Under the pieces are notes generated by a model that saw nothing but the letters and a program-made list of their open reading frames with translations, was not told the origin of the DNA and did not search any database. Positions 1 through 57,319 of a stretch of 61,858 bases of DNA are shown one piece after another. How positions within the stretch are numbered: position 1 is the first letter of the stretch; every line of letters starts with the position of its first letter. This DNA is from a virus (lineage: Duplodnaviria > Caudoviricetes), in IMG/VR virus record IMGVR_UViG_3300042901_000051, positions 1 to 61,858 of that record; one strand, 5' to 3'. The position numbers and the translations under genes are program-made.

Positions 1-3000
1 ATCACCAACAGCTATCGCCAAGTTTGCTAATGCGTAAACCTTTTGCTTGGAACGCTGGGCATCCGTTTGGAACTTCATAGCCACGTTAGCCTTTTCTTGC
101 TTAGTCGCTACTTCTAATGGGGCAAATCCAAAGGCTTGAAGCGCAGCATCGTAACCCGAAACATCTTCTACAATCGGATCACCACGCAGGGTGCGTGCGC
201 CCTCTTCCGTAAATCGATATGCTTTTGCAAAGTTTTTAAGAACAGAGGGCAGCATGGTCTCGACCCCACGGTAAAGTTTACCGTCATTAATTTGATCGAC
301 TCCACGCCCTACGTTTAAGAACATACCACCTACCGGGCCAGTTGCTACTTTTAGGGCATCCATAATTGCGCCTTCAGAATCCTCAGACTTAGATGCACCA
401 GCCCCAATTCCGGGGAAGAAACCTAGTAGCGGCATATCTCTAAAGCCAGTACGAGATGCAATATTTGCTCCGGTGAGAGATCCGGGGATACCAGAGACTA
501 AGAAATCTGGGAGGGTTTCCCTAACCTTCGTTGTAAAGTCATAGTATGGATCTTCGTCATCACCGATAGCGTTCATTATGGATTCGACCATCCAGTAGAA
601 CGGCATACCAATTACCCCTGACATGGCGGCTGAAGTACCAAGCAAACCAGCCAATCGGTTCTGTGCCAGCGAACGTTCTTCAGGCGTAAACTTGTTACGA
701 TTCATAACAATTTGCAAATTACGTCCGTACAGATAAAGCATCATTTGCAAGAACTTCTTGAACATAAGCAACACTTTGGCAGCAGGATGTTTAAACACCC
801 GTGGTGCATTCATGTCCGAATAGTCGCCTTGGGTTTCTACCACCGCATCGTTTGCGGCTTGGACAGCCTTATCGTAGTTCTTGGAACGATTGTACTCTAA
901 GCGGAATGCAGCCAACGCAGTTACTTCCCGGTTAAACCGTTCTGCATTTTGGAACATATAACCTAAAGCAAAGTTAACCTTCTTACCCACTTTCTCTAGC
1001 GGCGTAGCATTTTTTAACCCCGTCATGGTCTCAATATCGCCAACTTCTGTAGCCGCAGGAGGTATGACGTTTAAGTCATATAGTTCTTGTATGGCTTTCT
1101 TTTCAGTAGCCGACAAGTTATTGTTGGTTTTAATACTAAAGAATCCTTTACCACCGGATATTTCTCCGCCAAAGAAGTCTCTACCCGCCTTAACAAGTTC
1201 AGACATAGTCGGATTTAAGCCGTACTTGGGTGCTAGATAAGGTAGGGTTACGCCGGGAGTCTGAAGCAACTGCACCAAAGCGGCTGATGGGTTCGCACCC
1301 ATGTACCATGCAAATCCTAAATTACCGAGACGGGTTGCCCACGGGCTTATGGTTGGGTTTATAGCAGAGTCAAAATGCTTTTCTACTTCAGCAAGTACCC
1401 GCCCCAATTCATCATCCGGATCCTGTTTAATCTTAGCCTTCATAGTTTCAATGGCGTTGTCCATTTCGGACATATAGCGTGCCTTGGGCAGTTGATGCAC
1501 CACCCTGTCGGCTAACTCACCATAGTTGCGAAGTGCATCACGCTCGTAAGTAGGCGCACCTTTACGGTTTTGGAACTGCCGCATAAATGACTCTTCAGGC
1601 AAGTACATCAGAGTCATCTGATATAACTCGTCTTTGGCTTTAGGGTTAACCCTATTACGATCCAGCACTCGCTCTAATTGTTTGAAGAATCCTGCACGAG
1701 GGGCGCCTTTGGCTTTGAGTTCTTGGATAGATTCAAACTGTTTGACCCCGTAACCTTTGGCTTTCATCTGTTTAGCAAACTCATCAGCCTGTGCCTTGGT
1801 CTCAAACGAATACGGCAATACTTGATCTTCTGCTGTTTGGACATTGACCCAGTTATTGCCAAAGAACATTAGTGGTGCGTAGGGGCCTTTATCTTTAAAA
1901 GAATCAATCTTTTTATCAATCATGGCCTTGATTTCGGCCTTAGAGGCAGGGTCTGTTACATAACTTGTAGCCCGTGCAACCATTGAGTCTTTTATTTGGT
2001 CAAGGATAAAGTCATTATTCTTGCGGTACTTAGCGTAGAAATCTTTAACGTCTTGTGGGAACGCATTGTAAATATCCTGTAACCGCTTATGGTCGGCTTT
2101 AATTGCAGGGTCTTTGTAGTCTGAGTTAGGTTTTAGAACATCTACTTCAAGACGAGAACCCTCATTGATAACCTCGTAGATTTTATCTTTTAGATTCTTA
2201 TGTGCGTCAATGACTTTATAGAAGTCATTAAGAACGTCAGCGTATTTTTCCCGTAGGGCATTACGATACCCACCCATTTTTTGGGTGGCTTTGTAGTAAT
2301 CATTTAGTTCTTTTAACCTAGGATCAGAACCATAAATATCTCGAATTTGATTCATGGCTAGGAGAGGCAACATGCCTGTCTTTACTGCACGAGTAGCATC
2401 CGCCTTGCTTTTGATGACCGGAACATTTAATGCAGGATTGTTCTTGATGTCATCTAAGATTTTTATGATGTCAGCGGGTAGCGGGTCCCGCCCGTACTTT
2501 TTTGGGGTTGTAAACTCCGAAATACTAGTTTCGTTTGGCCTACCCTTCATTATAGAAGTTGGCGTGCTTTGCTGAATTAATTTGCTAAACTGATTTACAG
2601 TAAGATCAAAGACAGACTGTGAAGAATCGGGTAGATTAAGTGCCTGACGAACCAGTCGAGTAAAGAACTCATAGACGTTGCGAGCACCTTTAACTAACTT
2701 CTCAAACATATTTAGACGACGCTCATCAGCCTTACCGGGTTTATACTGCTTTATCCAATCTGTAAACTCTTTGGTTGATATCTTTTTAAGCGCAGATTTA
2801 AAATCTTCATCAGATAGGGCTTCTGCTACAAACTCTAAAGAATCTTTCATGCCGTACTGTTGCTTAAGACTCTTTAAAAGTTTTACATCACCCTGATTAC
2901 TTGAGATCTTGTCGTTAATGTAAAACTCCATAAACCTGTGCAAATCAATCAAACCTTGTGCAGAATCTTCCCAACGAGCACCTGTGCGTTTGTACTCGGG

Positions 3001-6000
3001 GTCTTGGATTTTACGTATTTGCCCAACGGTCAAAGAGTGAATAATTTCGTGCAGAGCAACATCGGGTAAATAAACATGATCTTTACCAATTATGATGCTA
3101 GATTCGCGGTTGCCTTTACTGTCGAATATATTGTAGAAGTAACTACCACTTCCTTCTGAAGGATTATAAAACACAGGTATTTTATCTAATTCAAATTTAG
3201 ATGCTTGGGTAGAAATGACTCTTGCCAACCTACCTGTATCTGAATTACCTTCATATTTGGCAATTAGTTTTAGTAACTCGTCTGTATCTAGAGTTGTGCT
3301 TTCTGCACGGGCTTTGTTTAGAAATGCATTAGCAAACCCTACATTTGGCTTATCTTCTAAGCGTTGTGCTCGTTCAGAAAAATAAACTTGTATGCCATAG
3401 GTATTGTCAAGGTAGTTAAGTGCCTCATCTAGCACCCGATCATCCATAGCAAACTTGCCAACTTCTTTTCGTTGGGCCGCACGTTGGGCGCGTAAGTCAG
3501 CAAGGGCACGCATGGTGGCATCTAAACCATACTCATCAACAGACTTCTTGACAGCTACTCCATTCTTCAAATCGTTGTAAGTCGAACCGGTAAGAATGTC
3601 GGTTACTTTAGCAATCTTAGTACCAGCAATCTTTTCGGCTTTACGCTGTTGCGCACCGGCTTGTGGGGTAATTACAAAGTCAGGGGCTGGTCCTTTAGCT
3701 TCAACATCGGCAGTAAACGTAAGGTACTTGACGTTAGCCAGAGTGCCAGATCCTGCAAACGAGGCTTTAGCGTCAGGGTATTTGACCCGGAAACTGCCAA
3801 ATAAGTCATCTATGTTGTAGCGTGCGGGAGCAATAATGGCAAACTTGTTATCACCACTACGCAAAATAGCGTATTGATACGCCGTATCAAACGGTGCCCA
3901 ATCATTAGTTTTTACAGTACGAGAAATCTTTTTGGTCAGTTTACCTTCGGCTTCTTCAAACTCTTTAGCAGTAAGTTTACGACTAAGTTTTTCGCCTTCA
4001 CCAAACGACCCATCAATCTTCTGCTGTAAGTTCTCTGCAACTTTGCTAGTGCGGGCTATATTTTTCATGACAGGTTGCAAATCTGCGCCCTTCATATCCG
4101 CTACACTTTGAATTAGTTGAGCCAACGGTTGTGGCTCCATTTTACGGATGTCTTCAAACGTCTGTACCCGAGTTTTCTCTTCTTCTTTAACCCGTTCTAT
4201 TTCTTCTTTTTGACGTTTTTCAGCAGCCTTTTGATCTGCTTCTTCCCGTTCAGCGGCTTCTTTTTCTTTCTTACTTTCAATATCTTGCCCACTTAAGCGA
4301 ACTAATTCATCTGTGTACAATTCTTTAAGTTGCTTAGGACTGATATCGTATAGTTTGGCAAGCCCTTCAAAATCTATATTGCCGTTAAGATCGGTATAGT
4401 CACGAACGTTTTGACGTAGTTCACGAATATCATCCTGAGATGCAATATCTCTATTGATTTTCATTACGGCAGTAAATGCCGCCCGAGTCTTAAGCGTAGT
4501 ATCTTCTTCAACGGCTTTAGCCGCCTGTTCCTTAGACTCCTTAGACTTTTCTTCTTGTGCTTTGCGTTCACGCTCTTGCCGTGCCTCAATTCGGGCGCTA
4601 TCTTCAGGAAACTGCTCTGCCTCACGACGAGCCTGTTTGCTAAGAACTTTAGTTGTAACTTCTCGCTGCGCAGTACGACCACGCATCTCAACTAATTTAC
4701 TAGCAAGACGACTACGTTCTTTTCTACTTAGGTTCTTTAAAAACCCTTCAGCCCGGGCAAAGGCTCGGTTTAGTGCAAGGGCAGCAGGGTCAGTTGCTTC
4801 AAATTGCGGCTGAATGCGACCCGGACCTTTGACCATAGAGAATAAAGTTGACAAGTCCTCGTCATATTGTGCTTGTTCATTGGGTGTTGCTTTGTCATTG
4901 TTAATCTTGCCACGCAACGGACGGATCCGGTCAATAAGAGTTTGCACATCTTCAAGTGTGCGACCCATAGGCAAACGGGTTTCTAATTCGGTGGCTACGC
5001 CTTCTTCCCGTGCAGCCTCACCAGCAGCCTCTTGTGCCTTGATCTTTCTGAATCTCTTTTCTTCTTCCTGCTCCGTAGGAGTAGGGAACATATCAGGTTG
5101 AACGGGTTGAAGTGCGTCGAATGCAAGTTGACCCTGCTCCAATGCAGGAAACAGCCGCAAGTTTTCTTGTGCTGCGTTATATGCTTGTTCAAGATTTGCT
5201 ATTCTTTTTTCTAATTCTGCAGCCTGCGCTTTTTTACCCCGCATTACACCTTCAGGTCCAAGGATGGCTGCATACTCACGACGGGCTTTATCTAACTCAC
5301 GACGAAAGTTCATGGCACGGTTGGTTAAATCCATCCGAACGCCTTCGGCAACTCCTTCATCGGTTAGGTTTTTGCCTTCGTATTGTTTAATCTTGTTGGC
5401 TGCAATACCAATAGATTGCAGACCTTCTCGGGTTAGTCCTTCTTGAACAGGCGTTTCAGGCAGTAAAGATGCTACACCAGCAGGCTCAAACAACTCGCCT
5501 TGAGCGGTTTCGGCAAAAGGCAACTCAGTCTGTGTTTCTGGGAACAACTGCATCTGACGAGCGGCTTCCTCGTCTTCAGGCATTTGACCTGCTTGCTCGG
5601 CAATCTTTTGGTTAACTACATCTAATAGAACCTCAGAACCGGGAACTTGGGTTCCCTGCCGAATGACTTGGTTACGTATATCAATTAGTTCCCCGATAGA
5701 GAACGGAATCTTATTAAGTTTGTCGGCAACCTTTGCCGCTGTAGCCTGAACTGCAATATCGGCTTGGGGCACCCCAGCCACAGAGGCTTGAGCGGCTACA
5801 TTTAACTGCCGAAGATCGTCTTCAAACTCAGCCCTTTGCCGGATAAATTCGGCTTCTTGGCTAGAGCCACGGGTAACTTCTGGGCCTTGAGTAGTAATAT
5901 CCCCGAACAAATCGGGCTGCGCTTCAGCAAAGACTTGAGCACCTGTCTCTGGGCTAGGCGGTATGGTTGGAGTTACGCCTAACGCTTTAAGTTCTTTTAC

Positions 6001-7446
6001 CCCTGCCTTGGTCGCTTTTTCTGCGGCTTCGCCTTCTTTGGCTTGTTGTTTTGCCAATCCTTGACGGGCTTCTATGTCTTTCTTAGCAATCTCAGCCTGT
6101 TCTTTAGCAATTTGTTGTATTGTCTTGGGTGCAGTGCTTGGAGCTGCAGGGGGTTGTACAGGTACACGCGCACGAAGTTCTTGTAGTTTACCCATCAAGT
6201 AGGCGTCTACGTCCTCGCCGTTGTAATTACGTACAACAAGTTCTTCAAATAGGTTTAACGGTTCCCCGGCAATCTGCTTATCAAGTACCTTCTCAATGGT
6301 TGAGATGTCATTAAACTTTTGGCGGCTACCAGATAGGTATTCCCCAAGTATTTTTTCAGCCTGCCCAAACTGATCTGGATCGGACAGGTTTTTATTAAGC
6401 AGTTTAGAAAATGTATTGTCAGCCTTCTTACCCCTAGCGATTCCAAGAGTCTCTAAATCTTCTTCAGAAATAACATTGATGCCTTGCTCTAATTGCTTGG
6501 CACGAATCTCTTGTCGTCTACGAGCAATCTTTTCTTCTTCCGTCAACTCGGGGGTAGCGGCCTCAGTAGCGATTTCTTCTGCTGCTTCTTCGGGTTTTTC
6601 CGCTGCAGCCCGTTTTTTCATGGCCCGACGGCCTATGGTTAAATCAAGCGCAGACTGAAGAATTGCACCGGCACCGAATCCGTAAGCGCCTTGCTCCCCT
6701 AAACCTTCAATAAGTTGTTGGTCGGGTTTATATAAGTTTTTGGAAATAAGGTTTTGCAAGAATCCTTGCGCTACTTCTTGGGCACCTTCTACGCCACCGG
6801 TAATTGCGGCGTTCCGTATTAACTGTAAACCCTGATTCATAATTGAACCGGGCATTAATTTCATTGCTCGACCAAACGCTAACTCAATAGGAATGGCTTC
6901 TGTAATACCGGTTGCACCACCATAAAGAGCAGCCTCAAGTCGAGTAGCAGGAGCCGCGCCAGCCTCCATTGCCCGTTCAATTTGTTCACCAGCCCCCGCA
7001 CCCATACCAGTAGCCAGAGGAGCACCGCGACCAATACCACGCGTAGCGGCAAGACCTAGTACAGAGCCAACTGCTTGACCTAATTTAGGAGCAACTTCGT
7101 AACCTTCGGTTGGCTTAAAGTATTCAGCCAGTGGTTCTTTTACGTATTTTTGAGTAAGGCCGGTAAGCCCACTTACAACAGGTTCAGCCCCGGGACCAAC
7201 ACCAAACTTCTGTTGTAAAACGTCTGCCGCTGTACCACCAACACCAATAGCAGCCTGCTCTAGCATTCCCCCAGCACCGGGGAGCAACTGTTTACCAAAT
7301 TCTTTTAACTGCCCAAACGCAGAAGTTTTAGGTTTAGGAGTCAGGAGACCCATCAAACGCCGGTCAATGTCGGCATAGATAGCATCATCAGGAGTGCCGT
7401 CTGGATAGGTAAGCCTGCCCAGTGCTGGATCTTCTACGATTCGCAT
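1..7446 (-). CDS. Giant polyvalent/ejection protein (>2482 aa, 3' end outside window) with zincin HExxH and a PLxRFG-like C-terminal region
   Basis: ATG at 7446 (MRIVEDPALGRLTYPDGTPDDAIY...) just after the 7450 stop. No stop seen in this frame, and the ORF track lists no closed ORF in it, consistent with running off the window. HEIIH at 3037-3051, GPYAPLMFFG at 1858-1887, WYMGANPSAALVQLLQTP and AERFNREVTALAAFRL. Confidence 0.85.
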   Translation of the reverse strand, partial: MRIVEDPALGRLTYPDGTPDDAIYADIDRRLMGLLTPKPKTSAFGQLKEFGKQLLPGAGGMLEQAAIGVGGTAADVLQQKFGVGPGAEPVVSGLTGLTQKYVKEPLAEYFKPTEGYEVAPKLGQAVGSVLGLAATRGIGRGAPLATGMGAGAGEQIERAMEAGAAPATRLEAALYGGATGITEAIPIELAFGRAMKLMPGSIMNQGLQLIRNAAITGGVEGAQEVAQGFLQNLISKNLYKPDQQLIEGLGEQGAYGFGAGAILQSALDLTIGRRAMKKRAAAEKPEEAAEEIATEAATPELTEEEKIARRRQEIRAKQLEQGINVISEEDLETLGIARGKKADNTFSKLLNKNLSDPDQFGQAEKILGEYLSGSRQKFNDISTIEKVLDKQIAGEPLNLFEELVVRNYNGEDVDAYLMGKLQELRARVPVQPPAAPSTAPKTIQQIAKEQAEIAKKDIEARQGLAKQQAKEGEAAEKATKAGVKELKALGVTPTIPPSPETGAQVFAEAQPDLFGDITTQGPEVTRGSSQEAEFIRQRAEFEDDLRQLNVAAQASVAGVPQADIAVQATAAKVADKLNKIPFSIGELIDIRNQVIRQGTQVPGSEVLLDVVNQKIAEQAGQMPEDEEAARQMQLFPETQTELPFAETAQGELFEPAGVASLLPETPVQEGLTREGLQSIGIAANKIKQYEGKNLTDEGVAEGVRMDLTNRAMNFRRELDKARREYAAILGPEGVMRGKKAQAAELEKRIANLEQAYNAAQENLRLFPALEQGQLAFDALQPVQPDMFPTPTEQEEEKRFRKIKAQEAAGEAAREEGVATELETRLPMGRTLEDVQTLIDRIRPLRGKINNDKATPNEQAQYDEDLSTLFSMVKGPGRIQPQFEATDPAALALNRAFARAEGFLKNLSRKERSRLASKLVEMRGRTAQREVTTKVLSKQARREAEQFPEDSARIEARQERERKAQEEKSKESKEQAAKAVEEDTTLKTRAAFTAVMKINRDIASQDDIRELRQNVRDYTDLNGNIDFEGLAKLYDISPKQLKELYTDELVRLSGQDIESKKEKEAAEREEADQKAAEKRQKEEIERVKEEEKTRVQTFEDIRKMEPQPLAQLIQSVADMKGADLQPVMKNIARTSKVAENLQQKIDGSFGEGEKLSRKLTAKEFEEAEGKLTKKISRTVKTNDWAPFDTAYQYAILRSGDNKFAIIAPARYNIDDLFGSFRVKYPDAKASFAGSGTLANVKYLTFTADVEAKGPAPDFVITPQAGAQQRKAEKIAGTKIAKVTDILTGSTYNDLKNGVAVKKSVDEYGLDATMRALADLRAQRAAQRKEVGKFAMDDRVLDEALNYLDNTYGIQVYFSERAQRLEDKPNVGFANAFLNKARAESTTLDTDELLKLIAKYEGNSDTGRLARVISTQASKFELDKIPVFYNPSEGSGSYFYNIFDSKGNRESSIIIGKDHVYLPDVALHEIIHSLTVGQIRKIQDPEYKRTGARWEDSAQGLIDLHRFMEFYINDKISSNQGDVKLLKSLKQQYGMKDSLEFVAEALSDEDFKSALKKISTKEFTDWIKQYKPGKADERRLNMFEKLVKGARNVYEFFTRLVRQALNLPDSSQSVFDLTVNQFSKLIQQSTPTSIMKGRPNETSISEFTTPKKYGRDPLPADIIKILDDIKNNPALNVPVIKSKADATRAVKTGMLPLLAMNQIRDIYGSDPRLKELNDYYKATQKMGGYRNALREKYADVLNDFYKVIDAHKNLKDKIYEVINEGSRLEVDVLKPNSDYKDPAIKADHKRLQDIYNAFPQDVKDFYAKYRKNNDFILDQIKDSMVARATSYVTDPASKAEIKAMIDKKIDSFKDKGPYAPLMFFGNNWVNVQTAEDQVLPYSFETKAQADEFAKQMKAKGYGVKQFESIQELKAKGAPRAGFFKQLERVLDRNRVNPKAKDELYQMTLMYLPEESFMRQFQNRKGAPTYERDALRNYGELADRVVHQLPKARYMSEMDNAIETMKAKIKQDPDDELGRVLAEVEKHFDSAINPTISPWATRLGNLGFAWYMGANPSAALVQLLQTPGVTLPYLAPKYGLNPTMSELVKAGRDFFGGEISGGKGFFSIKTNNNLSATEKKAIQELYDLNVIPPAATEVGDIETMTGLKNATPLEKVGKKVNFALGYMFQNAERFNREVTALAAFRLEYNRSKNYDKAVQAANDAVVETQGDYSDMNAPRVFKHPAAKVLLMFKKFLQMMLYLYGRNLQIVMNRNKFTPEERSLAQNRLAGLLGTSAAMSGVIGMPFYWMVESIMNAIGDDEDPYYDFTTKVRETLPDFLVSGIPGSLTGANIASRTGFRDMPLLGFFPGIGAGASKSEDSEGAIMDALKVATGPVGGMFLNVGRGVDQINDGKLYRGVETMLPSVLKNFAKAYRFTEEGARTLRGDPIVEDVSGYDAALQAFGFAPLEVATKQEKANVAMKFQTDAQRSKQKVYALANLAIAVGD

Positions 7447-7449
7447 AAT

Positions 7450-9159
7450 TTATTGTCCGGGAACGTCAGTAATCCTAGGTCGTTGCTGTCCACCTTGCCC
7501 AACAGCACCCTGAAGTATTGAATTAATAATTCGTTGCTGAACTTCAATTGGTTGGTCCCTAAATTCTTTCTTTAATTGTAAACCCGCAATTTGTTCTTTA
7601 GCCGCATCAACCATACCTTTAGCCATTACTCTATCTACATAACCCATTGTTGCAGCATAGGATACATCAGCTTTATACTTATCTAACATAGCCTGAGTAT
7701 AAATCTTCATACTATCAGCCCGAAGAGATGCTGCCTTATCAAACTTACCAAGTTCTTCGGCACGAATAGCCTTATCAAGATCCAACTGAGCAAGTTTAAA
7801 TTTATCAGCAGACTCACGTTCTGCTTTGTTGGCTTCTTTAATAGCCGAAGATTTACCTGCCATGGCTTTCATGGCTAGGGGGCTAAATGTTTCGGCTGCA
7901 CGGGCTGCAGCCTGCGCTAATCCCCGACCTTTAAGAAGTTGTGGGGCGGAAAGAGCCGCTCCTAATAATAATTCTTCTTTAAATGCTTCTTTAGCAGCCG
8001 TACGATCAGCCTCAGCACGTTCTTTACCTTCAGTACGAAACTTTTCAAGATCTGATTGGACATCTTTAAGAGACCTAAGACCTTGTTTATCTAGTTTTGC
8101 TTCATACATATTACGTTCGGCTATAAGGTCTTCAATACTCTTGGGTTTTAAATCAGCCAAATTAAATGGTAATGAAGGCAAACCAGACTTAGCAACACCG
8201 CTGGGACTGCCTGCAGGAGGTACAGCAGCAGGAGAAGGAGTAGGAGCGCCTTTATCCCGTGGAGACGGAGTCGTGAATCTAGAGTCCCCTGTAACACTAC
8301 GATCAATACCACCTTGTGTGCCTTGCATAGCAGCAATAGGATCAAGTTCAGCAGACGGAGTACCCTGATCTGTAGCCATCAAACGATCAACAAGCGGTTG
8401 TCCTAAAGCAGCAGTTGTAGTTAAAGCGGTGGCGTATGGATGCCTTGTAATAAGCCCCATACCCGGAATTTTAGCCACACGGCTTGCTAGTGAAGCAAGC
8501 CCCGGACGAGTAGTAGGACCAGCGGCGGCAGGAGTAGGTACAGCAGTAGCCCCGGGAACACCAGCAGGAATCTTACCCGGTGAACCAAACCTATCAGTTA
8601 CTTGTGGTGAAGCAGGTCCAATGCCAGGACCGGGTGTAGGTGCAGGTTTAATACCTGAACGCATCCGATTGCTTAATTCTTTTTGAGCCTCGGGGTCGCC
8701 CATCATTGCCATACGCTCAATGTCGCCAAAAGACAGACCTGCGTAACTAGCAAACGGAGCAACTGTACCTGCACCCCCAAACTGAAACCGTGCGACTCCG
8801 CCTTCGGCAAAACCATCACGTCCAGCTTCATCGTCAAAGTTCATAATACCCCCATTAACTGCTGTAACTGGAGCGTTTTGATTTTCCATTGCAGTTAATG
8901 CGCCTTCTACACCAGCAGCAGGTGGCGCCATCATGGCTTGTTGCTGTGGTTGAACTGCAGCCATTAAATCGTCTTTAACAGTAGTCTTAGGACCTTCTAC
9001 AGATTTAGGTGCAGCGCGAATAATATCTAGTAACGCCAGCATTTCGGGTAAGTCACGTTTGCGTTCGGCCTCACTATATTTAGCAAGCAAATCGTCCATG
9101 CCTACACCAAGATATGCTTTTTTACGTGTTTCAATGCCTCCCGGCAATCCTAGTTGCAT
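7450..9159 (-). CDS. Putative ejection (DNA transfer/internal virion) protein
   Basis: 569 aa, Ala/Gly/Pro-rich with helical C-terminus; position between tail genes and giant protein; FAEGG motif. Confidence 0.6.
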   Translation of the reverse strand: MQLGLPGGIETRKKAYLGVGMDDLLAKYSEAERKRDLPEMLALLDIIRAAPKSVEGPKTTVKDDLMAAVQPQQQAMMAPPAAGVEGALTAMENQNAPVTAVNGGIMNFDDEAGRDGFAEGGVARFQFGGAGTVAPFASYAGLSFGDIERMAMMGDPEAQKELSNRMRSGIKPAPTPGPGIGPASPQVTDRFGSPGKIPAGVPGATAVPTPAAAGPTTRPGLASLASRVAKIPGMGLITRHPYATALTTTAALGQPLVDRLMATDQGTPSAELDPIAAMQGTQGGIDRSVTGDSRFTTPSPRDKGAPTPSPAAVPPAGSPSGVAKSGLPSLPFNLADLKPKSIEDLIAERNMYEAKLDKQGLRSLKDVQSDLEKFRTEGKERAEADRTAAKEAFKEELLLGAALSAPQLLKGRGLAQAAARAAETFSPLAMKAMAGKSSAIKEANKAERESADKFKLAQLDLDKAIRAEELGKFDKAASLRADSMKIYTQAMLDKYKADVSYAATMGYVDRVMAKGMVDAAKEQIAGLQLKKEFRDQPIEVQQRIINSILQGAVGQGGQQRPRITDVPGQ

Positions 9160-9170
9160 AATATTACTCC

Positions 9171-10163
9171 TTATGAAGCGCCAAAGGCTTTTGATAAAGC
9201 CAGCGCAGGAATGCCATAACCCAAAACTTGTTGTGCAATATTAGGTTGTGCATTGTATTGTGAAGAAGTCGTATTAGCCTGTACCGGAAGTCCACGCAAC
9301 ATGGCGTTGTAAAACTCAAGTTGGCGATACGGATATTCGCGTTGTGCCAAAAAGTCTTGGTAGGATTGATCAAGCCTACGCTGCTCCATTTGTTGTTCTG
9401 CATTAGCAACCGATTGCTGTGCTTGCAGCCGTTGTAAGTCTGCAGCCTGCTCTTGAGTACCAAGTTTAGCCAGTTGTTCAGCGCCCTGTAAACCAAACTG
9501 ACCACCCTGAATACCTAACTGTGCTGCTTGCTGTTGACGTTGGACAGCCTGTGTATACGCGTCTTGCAAACCTTTAGTTTGAATATCAGTTAATTGTTGA
9601 CCTAAAGCCCTTTCGCGTTCGGTTTGTGCAAGTAACTGTCGTGCGCCCCCATACGTACCTTGGCGAACAGAGCCTAAGTTAGTTGCCTGCTGAATCATGC
9701 GTGCATCTTCAGCGGCTTTGCGTTTAGCTATATCAGTAACACTCTGTTGGTATGGAGACATATACTGCTGATATGCCATTGGATCCATACCTTGTTGAGC
9801 GGCCCCCATACCAAGACCAAGTGCTCCTTGAGTGCCTGCCTGTCCTTGGGCAAAACCTGTTGGGGTTTGCATCCCCATAGTTTCGCTAAAAACTCCTTGC
9901 TGACCGGGAGTAAACCCAGCAATACGTTCGGCACCATATGGTTGGTAGGCTTCTTGAGAGAGTGCTTCCCCTCGTTCAACCATCCGTGTGTAATATGGTT
10001 CAGCATACTCAGGCAGGTTAGTTGTATAGGTCGTAGACTCAGATGGACCACCACCACCGCCGCCGCTATCGTATAAGCAAATTTTGCCTACAGCGTTAGG
10101 TTTAAAGGCGTCTAAATTGCCCGGTATCCACCCGGCTTCTAGAGCCGCATAATTATTGCGCAT
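9171..10163 (-). CDS. Putative ejection/pilot protein
   Basis: Gln/Gly/Ala-rich, N-terminal poly-Gly tract, YMSPYQQSV motif, hydrophobic C-terminus; start could be 10169 or 10163. Confidence 0.65.
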   Translation of the reverse strand: MRNNYAALEAGWIPGNLDAFKPNAVGKICLYDSGGGGGGPSESTTYTTNLPEYAEPYYTRMVERGEALSQEAYQPYGAERIAGFTPGQQGVFSETMGMQTPTGFAQGQAGTQGALGLGMGAAQQGMDPMAYQQYMSPYQQSVTDIAKRKAAEDARMIQQATNLGSVRQGTYGGARQLLAQTERERALGQQLTDIQTKGLQDAYTQAVQRQQQAAQLGIQGGQFGLQGAEQLAKLGTQEQAADLQRLQAQQSVANAEQQMEQRRLDQSYQDFLAQREYPYRQLEFYNAMLRGLPVQANTTSSQYNAQPNIAQQVLGYGIPALALSKAFGAS

Positions 10164-10590
10164 ATTCAACCTCTTTACGTTTCATCCAACGTTCTGCTTC
10201 AGATTGTAAAATCCCATAAATCAACATATCTTTGTTGCCGTAACCTTGACGCATGATGCCTTCACATACAAATCCAATACTTTCTAGCATCCGACGGGCT
10301 TTCGTGTTTTCTGGTTGAGTACGGGCAGTTACACGAACACAGCCTAAATGGTTAAAAACAAAATCTGCTATTTCACCAATGATTCGTTTGTTTAGCCAAT
10401 ATTTAGCCCCATCACTTACACCACCAAAATATACGTTGGTGCCATCGTAATCAAATAAAATTACAGCACCCAATAACTTCTTTTCGTTACCAATACCAAT
10501 TGTGTAATACCATCGTGGTTTGCCATTTTTGACCGGCATTCTTTCAAGAATCCAATCAGAAAAGTCGCAACCGTGAATAGTTCTAAGCAT
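10153..10590 (-). CDS. GNAT-fold acetyltransferase-like protein in tail/ejection cluster
   Basis: FNHLGCVRVTARTQPENTKARRMLESIGFVCEG is typical of RimJ/RimL-type GNAT; same position as P22 gp14/T7 gp13-like genes. Confidence 0.8.
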   Translation of the reverse strand: MLRTIHGCDFSDWILERMPVKNGKPRWYYTIGIGNEKKLLGAVILFDYDGTNVYFGGVSDGAKYWLNKRIIGEIADFVFNHLGCVRVTARTQPENTKARRMLESIGFVCEGIMRQGYGNKDMLIYGILQSEAERWMKRKEVEYAQ

Positions 10591-37660: not shown

Positions 37661-37853
37661 CTAGGTTTTCCTTTCTTGCTTTATTAGCGAGTTCTTCAAA
37701 CATATTTACGGCAACCATCAAGCCACGGATTAAGCCAACTTTTTCGCGGTACGCTGCGTAATCATCAGCCGATCCCATGGCAAGGTCCTCTGCTTGCCGA
37801 TCTAACTCCTTACGTATTTTTTCTAAGAATATTTCTTCAAATGAACTAGCCAC
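37653..37853 (-). CDS. Small helical protein
   Basis: DDYAAYREKVGLIRGL; coupled to portal gene. Confidence 0.6.
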   Translation of the reverse strand: MASSFEEIFLEKIRKELDRQAEDLAMGSADDYAAYREKVGLIRGLMVAVNMFEELANKARKENLDD

Positions 37854-40236
37854 GTTGTGATGGACCCTTTCTTAAGTTAATTGCTGCACGAAACCCCTCT
37901 AAAGTCTCCTCAGAAGCAAGTTTTTTATCTTGCTCTTCTTTTTTGTTCTCTATTTCTTCTTGCTTGATGGCAATCTCGGCTGACCGAAGCGCCGCGTCTG
38001 ACATGTCTTTCTTCAGTTTGCGATCAACTTCTGCGGCCTTGATCTGCAACTCTTCGCGCTGTAGTTGGGTAAGCGGATCTTGTGCCTGAGCCATGGCTTC
38101 TTTCTGTGCAACTTCTGCTTGGCTTTGCTGAAGAACTTTCTGAGACGCATCTGCCATGAGGCGAGATAGCTGATTCTCCATGAGCGGGTCCATCTTCGCT
38201 CCAAGCGGGGGTATATCAATACCCAGAGACTGCTGTATCTCGTTGCGATACGCATAGCCCAAGTGCTCTGCAATATGAGCCTCCATAGCGCCAGAAATAA
38301 CCTGTGCATTTGGTGACTGACCTATTAGGGCACGTAGTTTGGGGTCCTTCATGGCGTTTGTATGCACCGTGAGATGGGCCTCGTGATCCTGCTCGGGGAA
38401 CGCCTTAACAGGCTTACCCTGCAGCACCATGGCGTTCTCGCTGACGGGGTCCCTATACGGAATCTCGTCTTTCTTAGGCACGATCTTGTCTGCATTCTCA
38501 AAGCCAATTAGCCGGATCATGCCCCGATGAAGTTCCGGTAAGTCATACAACTCCGGCCTTTGCTGGGATAGTTGTAGTGCTGCTTGGTACTGGAGCATCC
38601 GCTGAGAGAACGTTGACGCATTGGGGTCCGATACAGGAATAATGTCTACCCGCTCAAAGTCTGACTCCTTGATCATGCGATCCGGATCGACGTTGTACTC
38701 ATAGCCTGCCGGTGGGATGACCTCGATGATGGCTTTGAGAAGCCCAAACTCTTTCTTAAGCGTGGCGTGCATACGCGCCTGCACCGCAGACATAATCTTG
38801 AGCATCCGCTCAAGGACTGCGAGGGTGGTGCCCACCGGGGTGTTCTGGTCTACATCACCAATCTTAAGATCAGCAACCGCTGCCATACCTCGGCCCTGCT
38901 CAACAATCTTATCGAACAAAGACAAGAGCGTCTGGCTTGGCTCTTTATAGGGCAGGAATGTAATGTTCTCTTGGATCTTGCCGCTCGGTACATCAACGTC
39001 CCTAAACTCACCCGGCATGATGGGCGTCTCATCGCCCTTGATCCGCATACCACGAGTTTTTAAGCCACCCGGAAGATTGGCAAGTGTTCCAGCGTCAATA
39101 AGTTGGCGTAATAGAGAGGTAGCAGACTTAGCATGCCCACCAATAAGGTGGATAAGACCATAGCCATAGAAACCAAATCCAGGAACGTAATCGTACTTGA
39201 CGTAGTGCATGCGTCGTTTGTACGTTTCATCATCTTCACTCCAGTTACGATAAATAGATAGCACCTGACCGCTGTTGTAATCTACTGTAACGACGTATGG
39301 AATCTCAATTTCACCTTCAGCGCGATACGGATCGTTCTCTAGATCCAGATTCACGTTCATTTCAAGCAGCGTGTAGCGGTCATCCTTAATAATGTCGATG
39401 CCTTGCGCATCGGCTTCCGCTTTTTTCACATCATCCGTTACAACATCGGGCGGATCTTCTAAATCTACGTCTCTATAAAAGCCCGAGACCTGCATTTTGC
39501 GGATCTCGTTCTTAACTTTGCGCATTACGTGAGTAAAGCGCTCACAAGACTCTAAATCTGACGCAGAAAACGGCGCTACAAAGTCTTCAGCCGGAATAAA
39601 TATGGCTTCGGGGCGTTTAATCGTTGGGTCGTAATAGACTTTCTTAAACGCAGAGCCTGTCAGCGGCAGCGACCACAGCATCCGCTCATGCTCGGTGCGG
39701 TAGTTGACCATTTTCTCGGTCAGCACGTAGTTCATATAGTCTTTTACGCGCTCTGCAGCCTTCTCAGCCAGCATATCTTCCTTGCCGAGGATCTTTGCCT
39801 TGACCGGACCCCGTGGAGGGAAGGTCTCCATGATGGCTTCTGACTGAAAACGCACTGTGGCTTCAGTCAGTATGGGATGAAACACCCCGCAAGCACCGGG
39901 CCAAGGCTCTGTGCGGTTCTCAATCTTGAGTCCAAGCAGGTCTAGCCCTGTTTTGTAGGTCTTTTCCCAGTCTTTACGAGAGCGTTTGTCGTCATCAAAG
40001 TGCCCAATAAGTTCTTCAGCCAACTCTTGCAGGGCTGATTCTTCTAAATGCTCTGCCAAATTGGCAGAAAACTCTTTAATTCCGGTTCTTTCTTTACCAC
40101 GAGGCTCAATCTCAACCTCAATCCCGTCCATTTCAATACTTACAGACTCAGGATCTTCGATTTCAACCTCAATTGGGGGTTCGTTTAGGGCAGCCAAACC
40201 TACTGGAGCCTCATAAAGCGCTTTATCAATAGCCAT
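37846..40236 (-). CDS. Portal protein
   Basis: 796 aa; PWPGACGVFHP, GSAFKKVYYD, GFYGYGLIHLIGG, long C-terminal coiled-coil barrel; follows TerL. Confidence 0.85.
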   Translation of the reverse strand: MAIDKALYEAPVGLAALNEPPIEVEIEDPESVSIEMDGIEVEIEPRGKERTGIKEFSANLAEHLEESALQELAEELIGHFDDDKRSRKDWEKTYKTGLDLLGLKIENRTEPWPGACGVFHPILTEATVRFQSEAIMETFPPRGPVKAKILGKEDMLAEKAAERVKDYMNYVLTEKMVNYRTEHERMLWSLPLTGSAFKKVYYDPTIKRPEAIFIPAEDFVAPFSASDLESCERFTHVMRKVKNEIRKMQVSGFYRDVDLEDPPDVVTDDVKKAEADAQGIDIIKDDRYTLLEMNVNLDLENDPYRAEGEIEIPYVVTVDYNSGQVLSIYRNWSEDDETYKRRMHYVKYDYVPGFGFYGYGLIHLIGGHAKSATSLLRQLIDAGTLANLPGGLKTRGMRIKGDETPIMPGEFRDVDVPSGKIQENITFLPYKEPSQTLLSLFDKIVEQGRGMAAVADLKIGDVDQNTPVGTTLAVLERMLKIMSAVQARMHATLKKEFGLLKAIIEVIPPAGYEYNVDPDRMIKESDFERVDIIPVSDPNASTFSQRMLQYQAALQLSQQRPELYDLPELHRGMIRLIGFENADKIVPKKDEIPYRDPVSENAMVLQGKPVKAFPEQDHEAHLTVHTNAMKDPKLRALIGQSPNAQVISGAMEAHIAEHLGYAYRNEIQQSLGIDIPPLGAKMDPLMENQLSRLMADASQKVLQQSQAEVAQKEAMAQAQDPLTQLQREELQIKAAEVDRKLKKDMSDAALRSAEIAIKQEEIENKKEEQDKKLASEETLEGFRAAINLRKGPSQRG

Positions 40237-47240: not shown

Positions 47241-48326
47241 ATGATTGATATGCAAACAGTTTCACTAGCCGAGGCTAAACAGTCTATCCTCGCACTTGGC
47301 GCAGAAGTCCCCATCTTTCTATGCGGTGAGCCAGGCATCGGTAAGACCGCCATGGGTCAAGAAGTTGCTACGGAGTTGGGCTATGAGTTTGCGCCCATAG
47401 ACTGTGCGACTTTGGAGTTGGGTGACCTTGGTACGCCTGATCAAGACAAGCAGAATGGTTGCACAAACTTTCTGCCCAACGCACGGTTTGGTATTCACAA
47501 GGGTAAAGATATTGTGATGTTGCTAGACGAGATCACGAAGTCTCCCCGCCCTGTGATGAATATGCTCATGCCAACATTCAATGATCGGCGTTTGTATGAC
47601 AAGTATTTGACTAAGCCCTCTGTGGTATTTGCGACGGGCAATCTAAGCACAGACGGAGTTGGTGACAATATGCCGCCGCACTTCATATCACGCATAGACT
47701 TCTTGTATGTGCAAAAGCCTAATGCAGAAGAATGGTGTGATTGGGGTCGCAGTAATCAAATGAATCCAACCCTCATGGCGTGGGTTATTAAGAATCCGCA
47801 TTGTATGCAGTCGTACACCGACTTCAAGGATAAGGATATCAATCCAAAAGCACCGCCGAATCCGTACATATACTTCCCGCAATTGCCAAGAGCGTCATTC
47901 GTTTGCCCCCGTTCATTGGCACGAGCATCTAAGGTACTTGATAGGCGTGATGTCCTGACTGAGAAAGTTGTCCATGCAAACCTTGCAGGTGTCTTAGGTC
48001 GTAGCGCGGCGGCTGATATACAGGCGTACTCAACTGTGGAGAAAGATCTTGAAGATTGGGCAGTCATTGAGCGCGATCCCATGGGCGTCAAAGTGCCTGA
48101 TAATCCAATCGCTGTATGTATTCAGATTCAGCAGGCGATGATGCGTGCGGACAAGAACAACCTAACCGCAATCGTCAAGTATGTGAAGCGTCTACCCCGC
48201 GAGTCGCAAGCGTTGTTTGGTACTAACCTCTACAAGATCAAAGACAAACGGGATATTGCAATACGCAATACAGAGTTTGCTAAGTGGGCAATTGATAATC
48301 ATTGGATGTTGCCTGATGTTAAGTAG
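47241..48326 (+). CDS. MoxR-like AAA+ ATPase
   Basis: GEPGIGKT, MLLDEITK, FATGN, SR arginine finger, CPRS sensor. Confidence 0.88.
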   Translation: MIDMQTVSLAEAKQSILALGAEVPIFLCGEPGIGKTAMGQEVATELGYEFAPIDCATLELGDLGTPDQDKQNGCTNFLPNARFGIHKGKDIVMLLDEITKSPRPVMNMLMPTFNDRRLYDKYLTKPSVVFATGNLSTDGVGDNMPPHFISRIDFLYVQKPNAEEWCDWGRSNQMNPTLMAWVIKNPHCMQSYTDFKDKDINPKAPPNPYIYFPQLPRASFVCPRSLARASKVLDRRDVLTEKVVHANLAGVLGRSAAADIQAYSTVEKDLEDWAVIERDPMGVKVPDNPIAVCIQIQQAMMRADKNNLTAIVKYVKRLPRESQALFGTNLYKIKDKRDIAIRNTEFAKWAIDNHWMLPDVK

Positions 48327-48331
48327 TCGAG

Positions 48332-48346
48332 TTAAACCGAGTTTAA
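48332..48346. repeat. Palindrome copy 7
   Basis: Between AAA stop and AAAGGAG RBS. Confidence 0.9.
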
Positions 48347-48362
48347 TTGGAAAGGAGTATGT

Positions 48363-48527
48363 ATGAAGACCATACAAATTGCGGTGGAAACTGATGCGAT
48401 TGAAAAGACAATCGAACAGTTAGATGAAGACAATATGCCAATCCTCATGATCGAAGATGATCGTGATGGGGATAGTGGTGGATGGATATTTACGATAGGA
48501 GAAAGTAATGAGCAAACTAACACCTGA
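48363..48527 (+). CDS. 54 aa acidic protein (not in ORF track)
   Basis: AAAGGAG RBS; 14 D/E versus 3 K/R. Confidence 0.55.
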   Translation: MKTIQIAVETDAIEKTIEQLDEDNMPILMIEDDRDGDSGGWIFTIGESNEQTNT

Positions 48528-49803
48528 GCAGAGAGTATCCAAATCACGAGTTGCTTTGATGACGCATCCGAAATTCTGTGCGTTGTCGGGCATCATGCTG
48601 ATGGGTAAAGTGACTGTCGAAGAAGGGTGGGGAACTGCCTGTACTGATGGTCGCAACGAGTGGTACGACCCCGAATTCGTCGCTGAACTAGATGATTTGG
48701 AGTTGAACTTTGTGGTCGCCCACGAGAACTTCCACAAGATGTTTCAGCATGGCATTGTGTGGAATAGATTGTTTGAAGAAGATCCTGAGACTGCGGGTGT
48801 AGCCTGCGATGCAGTTATCAATCTAATGATTGAGGATTGGGGTAAGCCTGTTGGTAACTTTGAGCGCGTTGTAAAGTTTCCGACAATCGGTGGCATCTAT
48901 GACGAGAAGTACCGCAACATGGATGCAGGGCAAGTCTATCGTCTGTTGAAAGCAAACAAACCTCCTCCGCCGCCAAGAAGGGGCAATCAAGGTCAGGGGC
49001 AGGGACAAGGTCAAGGTCAACCGCAAGGTGGAACTGAACCGCCAAGCAATCCGAAGGCTAATACGACAAACCCGTCATCGTTTGATAACCACGACAGGAT
49101 CACGGAAACCAAGCAGTTGTCGCAAGAAGAGCAAGACAAGTTGAAGAATCAGATCGACCAAGCGATACGCCAAGGTCAGATGCTATCTAAAGATATGTGC
49201 AAAAAGCATGGTATCGGCAGAGGGGATTCCGAGTTGAACTTGAGCGAGATGCTTGAGCCGTATGTCGATTGGCGTCAGGTATTGCGGGACTTTGTGAAGT
49301 CAACACTTGCGGGTAAAGACTTATCTACCTATGCACGCCCGAACAAGAGGCTGAAACATCTTGGTATATACATGCCTAGCACATACAGCGAATCTGCATC
49401 TAGGATTGTTGGCGCTACCGATGTGTCGGGTTCTGTGGATCGTGAGTTGAGCCAAGAGTTTTTCTCGCAGTTGGAATCTATACGCCAAGAGTGCAATCCC
49501 GAATTCATGGATGTATTGGCATGGGATACGGCGGTGGAATCTCACAAACGCTTTGAGCGTGACTGTGGGGAAACCATGCTCAATGTCACTATGCGTGGCG
49601 GTGGTGGTACAGACCCTGCCTGTGTGTTTGACTATCTGCGGAGTGAGCGAGATGCAGTCCCGCCTGATGCGATTGTCATGCTGACAGACGGATATGTGCC
49701 AAGTTGGGGAGATGTCACTGGCATCCCTTGTCCTGTTTTGTGGGTAATTGTTGGTGACAGTAAAGCCATGCCCACGCATGGTCAAGTTGTTTATGCGAAG
49801 TAA
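48508..49803 (+). CDS. Metallopeptidase-vWA fusion (DUF2201-like)
   Basis: TACTDG, HENFH zincin motif, Q/G linker, DVSGS MIDAS, GGGGTD, LTDGY. Confidence 0.85.
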   Translation: MSKLTPEQRVSKSRVALMTHPKFCALSGIMLMGKVTVEEGWGTACTDGRNEWYDPEFVAELDDLELNFVVAHENFHKMFQHGIVWNRLFEEDPETAGVACDAVINLMIEDWGKPVGNFERVVKFPTIGGIYDEKYRNMDAGQVYRLLKANKPPPPPRRGNQGQGQGQGQGQPQGGTEPPSNPKANTTNPSSFDNHDRITETKQLSQEEQDKLKNQIDQAIRQGQMLSKDMCKKHGIGRGDSELNLSEMLEPYVDWRQVLRDFVKSTLAGKDLSTYARPNKRLKHLGIYMPSTYSESASRIVGATDVSGSVDRELSQEFFSQLESIRQECNPEFMDVLAWDTAVESHKRFERDCGETMLNVTMRGGGGTDPACVFDYLRSERDAVPPDAIVMLTDGYVPSWGDVTGIPCPVLWVIVGDSKAMPTHGQVVYAK

Positions 49804-55768: not shown

Positions 55769-57319
55769 ATGGAAATTGTAAACAATAAAGTATTACTGTT
55801 AAATCTCAAACGACCCGAACGGGTTACCGCCGTTATCCCAAAGAGCAAAACGCTTGGAGAGGATAACGGTCTCCATAAAGTCGCGGTTAATTGGGGCTTA
55901 GAAGAAGCACAAGTCCTAAAAAATCTCGGCATCAAAAATATCCCCTCACCAATCGTAAGCAACTATGATTTTGCGGGATTGCACAAGCCATTCCAACACC
56001 AAATAACTACCGCATCTTTTCTTACGTTGCATCGCCGTGCATTTTGTTTCAACGAACAAGGCACAGGTAAAACGGCATCCGTGATATGGGCAGCAGATTA
56101 TTTGATGAAGTTAGGTTTCATACGAAGGGTGCTTGTAGTGTGTCCTCTGTCTATCATGCAGTCTGCATGGCAAGACGACTTGTTTAAGTTTGCTATGCAT
56201 CGTTCCTGTGATGTGGCATACGGTATTCCTGAGAAACGCAAAAAAATAATTAACAGTCACGCAGAGTTTGTGATCATCAACTTTGATGGTGTAGAGATTG
56301 TGGCTGACGATATCAACGCAAACGATTTTGACCTCATAGTGATTGATGAAGCCAACGCATACAAGAACGTAAGCACTAAACGGTTTAAGGTTATGCAGAA
56401 ACTTATTGCATCAGAGCGGTGGCTATGGATGCTGACAGGCACACCCGCATCTCAATCTCCCGAAGACGCATACGGATTGGCTAGGCTTGTGAACCCTGAT
56501 CGCGTACCAAAGTTTTTTGGTTCGTGGCGAGACAAGGTCATGTGGAAAGTGTCACAGTTCCGGTGGCTACCTAGGGAAAACGCTAGTCAGACTGTTCACG
56601 ATGCACTGCAACCTGCAATTCGTTTCACCAAGAAAGAGTGCCTTGACCTTCCGGAGATGACATACGAAACCCGCGAGATACCCCTAACCAAACAGCAAGA
56701 GCGTTACTACAAACAGATGAAACAACAGGCTCTAATGATTGCGGCAGGGGAAGAAATCTCGGGGGTAAATGCGGCTGCAATTCTAAACAAGTTGCTACAA
56801 ATATCTGCGGGTGCGGTTTACTCAGACTCCGGTGAAGTTATACAGTTTGATTGCTCCAATCGTTTGTCAGAACTTGATGATGTAATTGCTGAAGCCAGTG
56901 ACAAAGTCCTCATATTTGTCCCGTTTAAACACGCGATCCATGTCGTTTCAGATTTTTTAACCGACAAAGGCTACTCCAACGAAATCATCAACGGAGAAGT
57001 TTCTGCCAAAGCCCGTACAGATATCTTTCGGCGGTTTCAAAGCGAAGCATCCCCCAAAGTTTTAGTCATTCAGCCACAAGCAGCGTCACATGGCGTCACA
57101 TTGACTGCAGCCAACACCATCATATGGTTCGGTCCTACAACAAGTTTAGAGACATATCTACAAGCAAACTCGCGTGCTCACCGACAGGGACAACACAATC
57201 CCGTTACGGTAATTCACTTACAGGGTTCTCCCGCAGAGCAACGCATCTATAAAATGCTTCAATCGAAACTAGATATCCATAGCCAAATAATTTCACTTTA
57301 TCAGGATCTAACTACTTGA
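55769..57319 (+). CDS. SNF2-family helicase
   Basis: EQGTGKT, IVIDEA, LTGTP, QANSRAHRQGQ. Confidence 0.9.
   Translation: MEIVNNKVLLLNLKRPERVTAVIPKSKTLGEDNGLHKVAVNWGLEEAQVLKNLGIKNIPSPIVSNYDFAGLHKPFQHQITTASFLTLHRRAFCFNEQGTGKTASVIWAADYLMKLGFIRRVLVVCPLSIMQSAWQDDLFKFAMHRSCDVAYGIPEKRKKIINSHAEFVIINFDGVEIVADDINANDFDLIVIDEANAYKNVSTKRFKVMQKLIASERWLWMLTGTPASQSPEDAYGLARLVNPDRVPKFFGSWRDKVMWKVSQFRWLPRENASQTVHDALQPAIRFTKKECLDLPEMTYETREIPLTKQQERYYKQMKQQALMIAAGEEISGVNAAAILNKLLQISAGAVYSDSGEVIQFDCSNRLSELDDVIAEASDKVLIFVPFKHAIHVVSDFLTDKGYSNEIINGEVSAKARTDIFRRFQSEASPKVLVIQPQAASHGVTLTAANTIIWFGPTTSLETYLQANSRAHRQGQHNPVTVIHLQGSPAEQRIYKMLQSKLDIHSQIISLYQDLTT

Follow-up and report, generated by a model that had tools for sequence, protein, structure and literature searches.

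We analyzed the IMG/VR record IMGVR_UViG_3300042901_000051 (Duplodnaviria; Caudoviricetes), a viral contig of 61,858 bases whose entire length is referred to below as the window, and identified in its giant open reading frame (ORF) P0001 a conserved array of motifs of the bacterial β-clamp-binding class. As modeled, the array occupies amino acids (aa) 490-790 of P0001 and combines four core sites, one NLxLF site and two variable sites, distributed over three flexible acidic linkers between helical spacers. Binding of the array to the host clamp DnaN is well supported in silico by sequence analysis and complex modeling, and unproven. The reading that we favor, with a probability of roughly 0.5, is that these individually weak sites form a multivalent clamp-binding array that tethers P0001, once delivered into the cell, to host clamps, where it may occupy both pockets of the clamp dimer and locally exclude clamp clients.

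Motif sites, their enrichment and conservation

A preliminary description of the window, made from the sequence alone, had listed six Qxx[LM]F or QxxLxF motifs and an NLRLF peptide in P0001, interpreted them as a multivalent clamp sponge or tether injected with the DNA, and proposed shuffled sequences, homologs and a complex model with a proteobacterial DnaN as means of checking this interpretation. Our pattern scan recovered the six motifs at identical positions on the minus strand and located NLRLF among them (Table 1), and both the pentapeptide and the hexapeptide forms are indeed present among the six. They span 278 aa, and no further match to Qxx[LM]x?F was found in a search of all 2482 aa of P0001.

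The motifs are strongly enriched in this region. Shuffled versions of aa 500-799 contain on average 0.26 motifs, and none of 20000 composition-preserving shuffles reaches six; shuffling of the whole protein gives a mean of 1.21 motifs, six being reached in 28 of 20000 cases. The other 67 ORFs of the window with at least 80 aa (16,616 aa in total) carry three motifs, or 0.18 per 1000 aa, which fall in a 154-aa ORF, a 102-aa ORF and the helicase. Given the abundance of Q, E, A and L in this region, the cluster might also be viewed as a chance outcome of its Gln/Glu/Leu/Phe-rich composition. The Poisson probability of at least six motifs at the composition-matched rate is 3.7e-7, and an event of this kind may turn up occasionally when very many windows are scanned; thus, it is the conservation of the motifs, rather than their enrichment, that rules out chance, which we consider a very improbable explanation.

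A database search with aa 440-900 of P0001 retrieved 33 homologs of 47-99% identity. QPDLF (site 1) is present in 32 of them, the lone exception being truncated at its N-terminus, whereas site 4 (as Q[GQ]ELF) and site 5 (as Q-x-x-L-x-F) are found in all 33. The remaining sites were scored in 31 homologs, as the anchor pattern missed P0018 and P0019, although both carry motifs. Among these 31, site 3 (as Q-x-E-L-P-[F/L/I]) and NL-x-[LM]-F are present without exception. At its last position, site 3 varies among F, L and I, an exchange that clamp-binding motifs tolerate (PMC11139829), and we therefore count it in favor of the clamp reading. The core sites 1, 3, 4 and 5 and the NLxLF site are thus kept in 31-33 homologs down to 47% identity. 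The other two sites are variable: site 2 occurs as Q[MT][QE][LM]F in 22 of the 31 homologs and is deleted in 9, and site 6 has its canonical form QPDMF, besides the window, in a single homolog (the nearest relative), while 27 homologs have [EL]PE[AV]F and 3 did not match the pattern used. The Phe of site 6 is nevertheless invariant in an alignment of 29 sequences.

The motifs are also better conserved than their surroundings, in homologs down to the same level of identity. Across 27 non-identical regions, the identity to the column consensus is 0.82 for the motifs (0.87 for the core Q/L/F positions), compared with 0.62 for the non-motif linker and 0.74 for the folded parts; the Mann-Whitney test gives p = 6e-5, a value that is indicative only, since the sequences are related. 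Separately from the motifs, the most conserved stretch of the whole region follows directly after the last of them, at aa 788-803 (window 5038-5085, minus strand). It reads P-T-P-T-[E/Q]-Q-E-E-E-[K/R/G]-R-F-R-[K/R]-I, in which acidic residues give way to basic ones, and it served as the pattern for our locus searches.

Canonical clamp-binding motifs follow the patterns Q-aliphatic-x-[L/M]-[F/L] and Q-aliphatic-x-[L/M]-x-[F/L], the most important residues being Gln, Leu or Met at position 4 and the terminal Phe, Leu or Ile (PMC11139829). Position 2 is tolerant, with Leu as the best residue and a large loss of affinity for small residues; the flanks are mostly negative; replacement of Gln by Asn, as in NLRLF, has a modest effect only; and avidity is possible when one partner carries several motifs (PMC11139829). 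All six motifs of the window have Gln, [LM] and F at the respective positions, and these features are kept at the four core sites in the homologs counted above. Site 1 has exactly the sequence of the motif near the C-terminus of the phage Mu protein MuC, for which clamp binding has been validated experimentally. In the two MuC motifs, QHDLF and QPDLF, an L-to-A change abolishes the interaction with DnaN, lethality and clamp-dependent transcription, and the consensus of the Mor/C family to which they belong is Qx[D/E][L/M]F or QPDLF (PMC12867686). The QPDLF, QGELF and QPDMF motifs of the window fit the Qx[D/E][L/M]F form of this consensus.

Predicted setting of the motifs and modeling with DnaN

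The AlphaFold2 model of aa 440-900, based on 29 aligned sequences, is helical and has a mean predicted local distance difference test (pLDDT) score of 64. Segments of low confidence (pLDDT<50) were found at aa 490-528, 622-668, 771-789 and 811-828, and all six motifs fall inside the first three of them. Burial of the motifs in folded domains, which the preliminary description had named as grounds for dropping its interpretation, is therefore not what the model predicts. Its view of the region as one acidic, Pro-rich linker of ~280 aa holds for the acidic character and fails for the single linker, as the model has three short low-confidence acidic linkers parted by two helical modules. The 8-residue flanks of all six motifs have a net charge of 0 to −3 on either side, in agreement with the mostly negative flanks of the motif class. 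No internal repeats between the helical modules were detected at E<=0.01; hence, the modules are not detectable duplicates, and the motifs are not simply copies borne by a repeated unit. A Foldseek comparison of the aa 440-900 model with PDB returned no match at E<=0.001.

To model the complex we used ESMFold2 with two copies of E. coli DnaN and linker 2 (aa 622-668) with its alignment, and ran three controls. The predicted complex scored 0.63 versus 0.01 for the best control; with DnaN replaced by an unrelated protein, the score was 0.01. For comparison, 58 of 80 solved complexes come up to that mark, as do 2 of 110 mismatched pairs. At least 82% of contacts agree between runs, and the partner pLDDT is at least 54. 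QGELF is predicted to lie in the pocket of DnaN copy 1 (residues 172, 174-177, 242, 247, 320, 346, 360 and 362-366), and RQMQLF in the same pocket of copy 2; over both copies, the contacts include 344/346. The predicted contacts overlap with the residues that PMC11139829 gives for subsites I and II, which places two motifs in canonical pockets of the modeled dimer. This score shows likeness to known clamp complexes rather than binding of P0001 itself, and may reflect solved complexes memorized by the predictor.

The same results bear on the idea that the motifs dock a partner other than DnaN, which could be either another host hub or a phage assembly partner such as the capsid interior, the portal or another ejectosome protein. 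Conservation in a disordered setting would suit any partner that reads short linear motifs, and the restriction of the module to one lineage is what would be expected for a co-evolving contact between phage proteins. Moreover, a protein of this kind has to be recruited into the capsid, and encapsidation of the phage N4 virion RNA polymerase requires a defined region (PMC5512222). However, the match to the clamp-binding class is specific, as it comprises an invariant Gln at position 1, [LM] at position 4, F/L/I at the last position, both peptide lengths, acidic flanks and a validated identical motif, and the complex prediction scored 0.63 with DnaN but 0.01 with an unrelated protein. We thus regard another partner as rather unlikely.

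Carrier protein and its putative ejection context

The frame of P0001 starts with an ATG at position 7446 and is still open at base 1 of the window. Its nearest homolog has 2544 aa, and thus P0001 lacks ~62 C-terminal codons. The missing residues were looked for at the opposite end of the record and are not there; therefore, although its completeness is estimated at 98%, the record is not circularly closed, and as a linear genome it is incomplete at the end where P0001 lies. Judged from its domain matches, P0001 belongs to the polyvalent proteins of the DarB-like/LPD39 kind, and its gene is the last of the structural operon. Its predicted features are collected in Table 1.

Table 1. Motif sites, linkers and domains of P0001, and the neighboring ejection gene, in window coordinates
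Feature	Position	Strand	Basis or remark
Site 1, QPDLF, aa 510-514	5905..5919	-	pattern scan
Site 2, QMQLF, aa 631-635	5542..5556	-	pattern scan
Site 3, QTELPF (hexapeptide), aa 639-644	5515..5532	-	pattern scan
Site 4, QGELF, aa 649-653	5488..5502	-	pattern scan
Site 5, QGQLAF (hexapeptide), aa 771-776	5119..5136	-	pattern scan
Site 6, QPDMF, aa 783-787	5086..5100	-	pattern scan
NLRLF, possible seventh motif with Asn replacing Gln, aa 762-766	5149..5163	-	end of a predicted helix in the model
Linker 1, aa 490-528, net charge −4	5863..5979	-	low-confidence AlphaFold2 segment
Helical module 1, aa 529-621, between linkers 1 and 2	5584..5862	-	AlphaFold2
Linker 2, aa 622-668, net charge −9, three motifs	5443..5583	-	low-confidence AlphaFold2 segment
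Helical module 2, aa 669-770	5137..5442	-	AlphaFold2
Linker 3, aa 771-789, net charge −2	5080..5136	-	low-confidence AlphaFold2 segment
Giant ORF P0001 (2482 aa), DarB-like / polyvalent virion protein	1..7446	-	translation; 3' end cut by record end
N-terminal Gly/Ala-rich conserved domain, aa 1-440	6127..7446	-	weak PHROG matches
HExxH domain, aa ~1385-1616	2599..3294	-	best structural match PhiM1 ejectosome chain
LPD39 domain, aa 1681-1830	1957..2406	-	43.2 bits, cut-off 27; also in homologs
C-terminal DarB-like / PLxRFG-type region, aa 1777-2471	34..2118	-	phrog_10089 'DarB-like antirestriction', E 1.3e-74
'DNA ejection protein' PHROG gene, upstream of P0001 with one ORF (7450-9159) between	9171..10169	-	phrog_4287, E 1.8e-15

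The N-terminal region of P0001 matches phrog_10691 (E 4.6e-08) and phrog_2206 (E 3.5e-06), and aa 158-487 weakly match a virion RNA polymerase PHROG, in its N-terminal part. The Gly/Ala-rich domain could be a shared ejection or membrane module. Within it, aa 98-264 (window 6655-7153, minus strand) are 28-34% identical to ORFs of phages of Microcystis and Nostoc that carry the annotation 'lysin', as well as to an ORF of Ruegeria phage 45A6.

The HExxH signature of the central domain is HEIIH at aa 1466-1470 (window 3037-3051, minus strand) and is invariant in 23 sequences. We modeled aa 1300-1650 (pLDDT 70.9; predicted template modeling score 0.72) and compared the model with structural representatives in an all-against-representatives search. 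Residues ~1385-1616 superpose on residues 290-504 of chain A of the PhiM1 ejectosome structure 8VB2 with a Z score of 9.3, a root-mean-square deviation of 2.9 and 146 aligned residues, the next match scoring 5.3; a Z score under ~8-13 can reflect a common arrangement. The tetrameric ejection protein of PhiM1 has an endolysin/exotransglycosidase-like domain at Asp268-Asp528 that is expected to degrade peptidoglycan (PMC11440229). The matched range lies inside this domain, provided that chain A is the tetrameric ejection protein. The HExxH domain may be a cell-wall-acting or peptidase-like ejection domain. A Pfam scan of aa 1300-1650 gave no peptidase match at E up to 1, and Foldseek found no match to the model at E<=0.001.

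The presence of this domain raises the question of whether the motifs are proteolytic processing sites, at which an embedded metallopeptidase or a head-maturation protease would split P0001 into functional pieces. Embedded zincin-like metallopeptidase domains, which are common but not universal in polyvalent proteins, have been proposed to process them, and DdrB and DarA of phage P1 are cleaved (PMC5512222); in P0001, the motifs stand at domain boundaries and the HExxH signature is invariant. On the other hand, only three linkers in a 280-aa part of the ~2500-aa protein have the motifs, which are absent from the remaining regions between domains. Cleavage would not require two or three neighboring sites per ~25 aa, and the HExxH domain matched no peptidase family in either Pfam or Foldseek, its best structural match being an ejectosome chain. 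Among the 67 other ORFs of the window, moreover, the motif is confined to the three named above. A role of the motifs in processing is therefore quite unlikely.

For the remainder of the protein, a Pfam scan of the whole of P0001 reported no families, LPD39 surfacing only when aa 1650-1900 were scanned alone, and phmmer with the whole protein found no matches among PDB sequences. In a tblastn search, the C-terminal 700 aa of P0001 matched giants with PLxRFG or DarB-like annotations from 75 phage records. The structural operon contains genes for terminase, portal, tail fibers, a 'virion structural protein', the 'DNA ejection protein' and an acetyltransferase, and is closed by P0001. Its operon position next to an ejection gene, its DarB-like/LPD39 homology and its ejectosome-like domain make it most likely that P0001 is carried in the capsid and leaves it together with the DNA. 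The acetyltransferase, a GNAT-type gene at 10153-10590 (minus strand), is located two ORFs upstream of P0001, in the midst of the ejection and structural genes.

The arm opposite the structural operon encodes a family-A DNA polymerase (PolA), a helicase, a primase, a PD-(D/E)XK nuclease and an AAA ATPase with a DUF2201 partner. PolA and the primase had been listed as the phage's own in the preliminary description and are both there, the helicase being an addition. No DnaN-family match was found in the record, and there is no clamp among the 30 phage proteins that were scanned with PHROGs. The helicase ORF (55769-57319, plus strand) has QDDLF at aa 135-139 (window 56171-56185), which fits the Qx[D/E][L/M]F consensus. 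The AAA ATPase (47241-48326) was considered as a clamp loader and dropped, as its weak PHROG match (E 1.1e-06) stands against a much stronger generic ATPase family and generic AAA matches in Pfam. Together with the following gene it occupies window 47241-49803 (plus strand); the product of that gene has a DUF2201_N domain (putative metallopeptidase) and a VWA-like DUF2201 domain, and its PHROG label, 'HNH endonuclease', looks misleading.

Proposed role, related systems and distribution

Under the reading favored here, P0001 would be packaged and ejected together with the DNA, its N-terminal third reaching the cytoplasm. In the hydrophobic pocket of the host DnaN, subsite I would take up the Leu/Met-Phe pair of each motif, and subsite II its Gln. 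The residue at position 2 is suboptimal in most sites (P, G or T), which would make single affinities weak to moderate, and the presence of several motifs would compensate by avidity. P0001 and any attached cargo would thereby be tethered to host clamps, with a local effect: where both pockets of a bound clamp are filled, Pol III, the clamp loader and Hda would be excluded, while the family-A polymerase, helicase and primase of the phage would presumably work without such clamp dependence. In a more specific and tentative version, the linkers would act as a virion-packaged 'clamp trap' that seizes both pockets of host β-clamps at entry, docking the incoming genome end and the effector domains of P0001 at replication forks or clamp-marked DNA and stripping clients locally.

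Alternatively, the motifs may bind DnaN as a global sponge that shuts down host replication and repair, most plausibly late, with the bulk expression of structural genes. This explanation shares all the binding evidence given above (enrichment, conservation, disorder, complex prediction and identity with a MuC motif), and the pattern scan found no motif in PolA or the primase of this phage, which has its own PolA, helicase and primase. Furthermore, overexpressed MuC is lethal via its clamp-binding motifs, indicating that motif-bearing phage proteins can poison clamp-dependent processes (PMC12867686). However, the number of copies per virion is presumably low and the weak position-2 residues point to modest affinity, and, with QDDLF in its helicase, the phage may not be independent of the clamp. 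We consider a global sponge unlikely.

Several points weigh against the tethering of P0001 to host clamps as well. What the analysis shows is the motifs, their enrichment and conservation, their predicted disorder and a supportive complex prediction, while binding, delivery to the cytoplasm and the downstream effect are inferred. A few molecules per virion, the number presumed here, would be unable to titrate the clamps of a cell. On such copy numbers, a global sponge brought in by injection is unlikely; thus, of the tether or sponge proposed in the preliminary description, the clamp-binding part is favored by motif likeness, conservation, predicted disorder and the complex prediction, and the global sponge by injection is disfavored by stoichiometry. 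Two of the sites are not well kept: besides the window, a single one of 31 homologs has site 6 in canonical form, and site 2 is deleted in 9 of 31. The E. coli DnaN used in the modeling is a stand-in for the clamp of the host, and many E. coli clamp-peptide complexes have been solved. After ejection, aa 490-790 may end up elsewhere than in the cytoplasm; another domain of P0001 resembles an ejectosome region that is described as endolysin/exotransglycosidase-like and expected to degrade peptidoglycan.

A further such point concerns position 2 of the motifs, which is P, M, T, G, G and P in sites 1 to 6 and is thus aliphatic-like in at most one of six, the M of QMQLF. Validated motifs that break the position-2 rule are known, namely QPDLF and QHDLF of MuC (PMC12867686) and QPLLI of MutL and QTSMAF of the ε subunit (PMC11139829). 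Read in this light, position 2 is a guide to affinity rather than to membership in the class, and the residues found there predict that the individual sites are weak.

Finally, the array is restricted in its distribution, which also counts against the reading. A phmmer search with aa 440-900 against 1.84 billion representatives returned one cluster representative, P0009, and a protein atlas search gave no usable match. A scan of viral contigs identified five further loci, which belong to the same clade of uncultured phages and have four to five motifs each. The scan of bacterial genome contigs produced 124 pattern matches, none of which was confirmed, and thus yielded no prophage copy and no clue to the host. 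Named DarB-like giants are not enriched in the motifs: all six giants selected out of those 75 records (Skulduggery, Klebsiella ZX1, POI1126, Vibrio douglas 12A4, Atu_ph08 and Mwe-JY07) have 0-2 motifs each.

The other genes of the phage point to no firm host. The portal protein (37846-40236, minus strand) is ~41% identical to those of Pelagibacter phages HTVC023P and HTVC027P and Roseobacter phages CRP-901 and CRP-902, and similarly to those of Caulobacter phages and of a 65,014-bp genome that was deposited under three cyanobacterial host names, while relatives of PolA belong to phages that infect Rhizobium and Pseudomonas. In HTVC023P, no giant gene was found in the 40 kb downstream of the portal, the largest annotated gene having 2607 bases (~870 aa).

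Among known systems, the closest is MuC and the related Mor/C activators. They are phage proteins that have more than one Qx[D/E][L/M]F motif, including an identical QPDLF, and address the host β-clamp, and MuC is toxic when overproduced (PMC12867686). In contrast to P0001, with its four to seven internal linker motifs in ~2500 aa, MuC is a small transcription factor that is made in the cell and has two terminal motifs, and there is no sequence relationship between the two outside the motifs. Cellular clamp clients (the Pol III α subunit with QADMF, ε with QTSMAF, Hda, Pol II/IV/V, and MutL with QPLLI) share with P0001 the motif grammar, the disordered or loop setting, the acidic flanks and the predicted pocket (PMC11139829). 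They differ in carrying one or two motifs beside a catalytic domain (PMC11139829), whereas P0001 has an array with mostly non-aliphatic residues at position 2 and no detected polymerase or repair domain. Gp168 of Staphylococcus phage Twort is another phage protein that hits the host β-clamp and arrests replication; it binds the DNA channel instead of the canonical pocket, and the account given in PMC11139829 describes no motif array in it. Eukaryotic PCNA clients with several PIP boxes likewise combine multiple weak clamp motifs through avidity or flexible tethers (PMC11139829), but the clamp, the motif and the kingdom are different, and the likeness is an analogy only.

With respect to the carrier, polyvalent proteins and the giants of the P1 DarB-like PLxRFG type (PMC5512222) resemble P0001 in their giant multidomain organization, late-gene location, LPD39 domain and DarB-like C-terminal region, and differ in that the six named relatives lack motif enrichment and in that the aa 440-900 module is confined to the lineage of P0001. 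The PhiM1 ejectosome protein (8VB2 chain A) is similar in that one domain of P0001 superposes on it and that the P0001 gene lies one ORF downstream of an ejection gene, but the match covers a single domain and no sequence similarity is seen. In its main text, the study of polyvalent proteins by Iyer et al. 2017 (PMC5512222) does not use the word 'clamp' at all, and none of the papers listed by full-text literature searches describes a conserved clamp-motif array in a giant structural or polyvalent protein. Clamp-binding motifs in phage proteins are already known from MuC, and what appears to be new here is a conserved array of them in a giant polyvalent protein.

Bacterial proteins of replication and repair universally reach DNA through clamp-binding motifs, and the use of this handle by phages is only now emerging (Mu MuC, 2026). 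If the tethering proposed here is true, the array would provide a ready-made, expression-independent way for a probably injected protein to engage the host replisome, and, should the 'clamp trap' version hold, this would be the first phage particle to deliver a pre-made clamp binder that is active before phage gene expression. The array could be a natural source of multivalent clamp ligands for use as tools, and it makes other virion proteins worth scanning for motifs that address host hubs. For the polyvalent and ejection proteins, which are poorly understood, it would supply a testable function for one of their modules.

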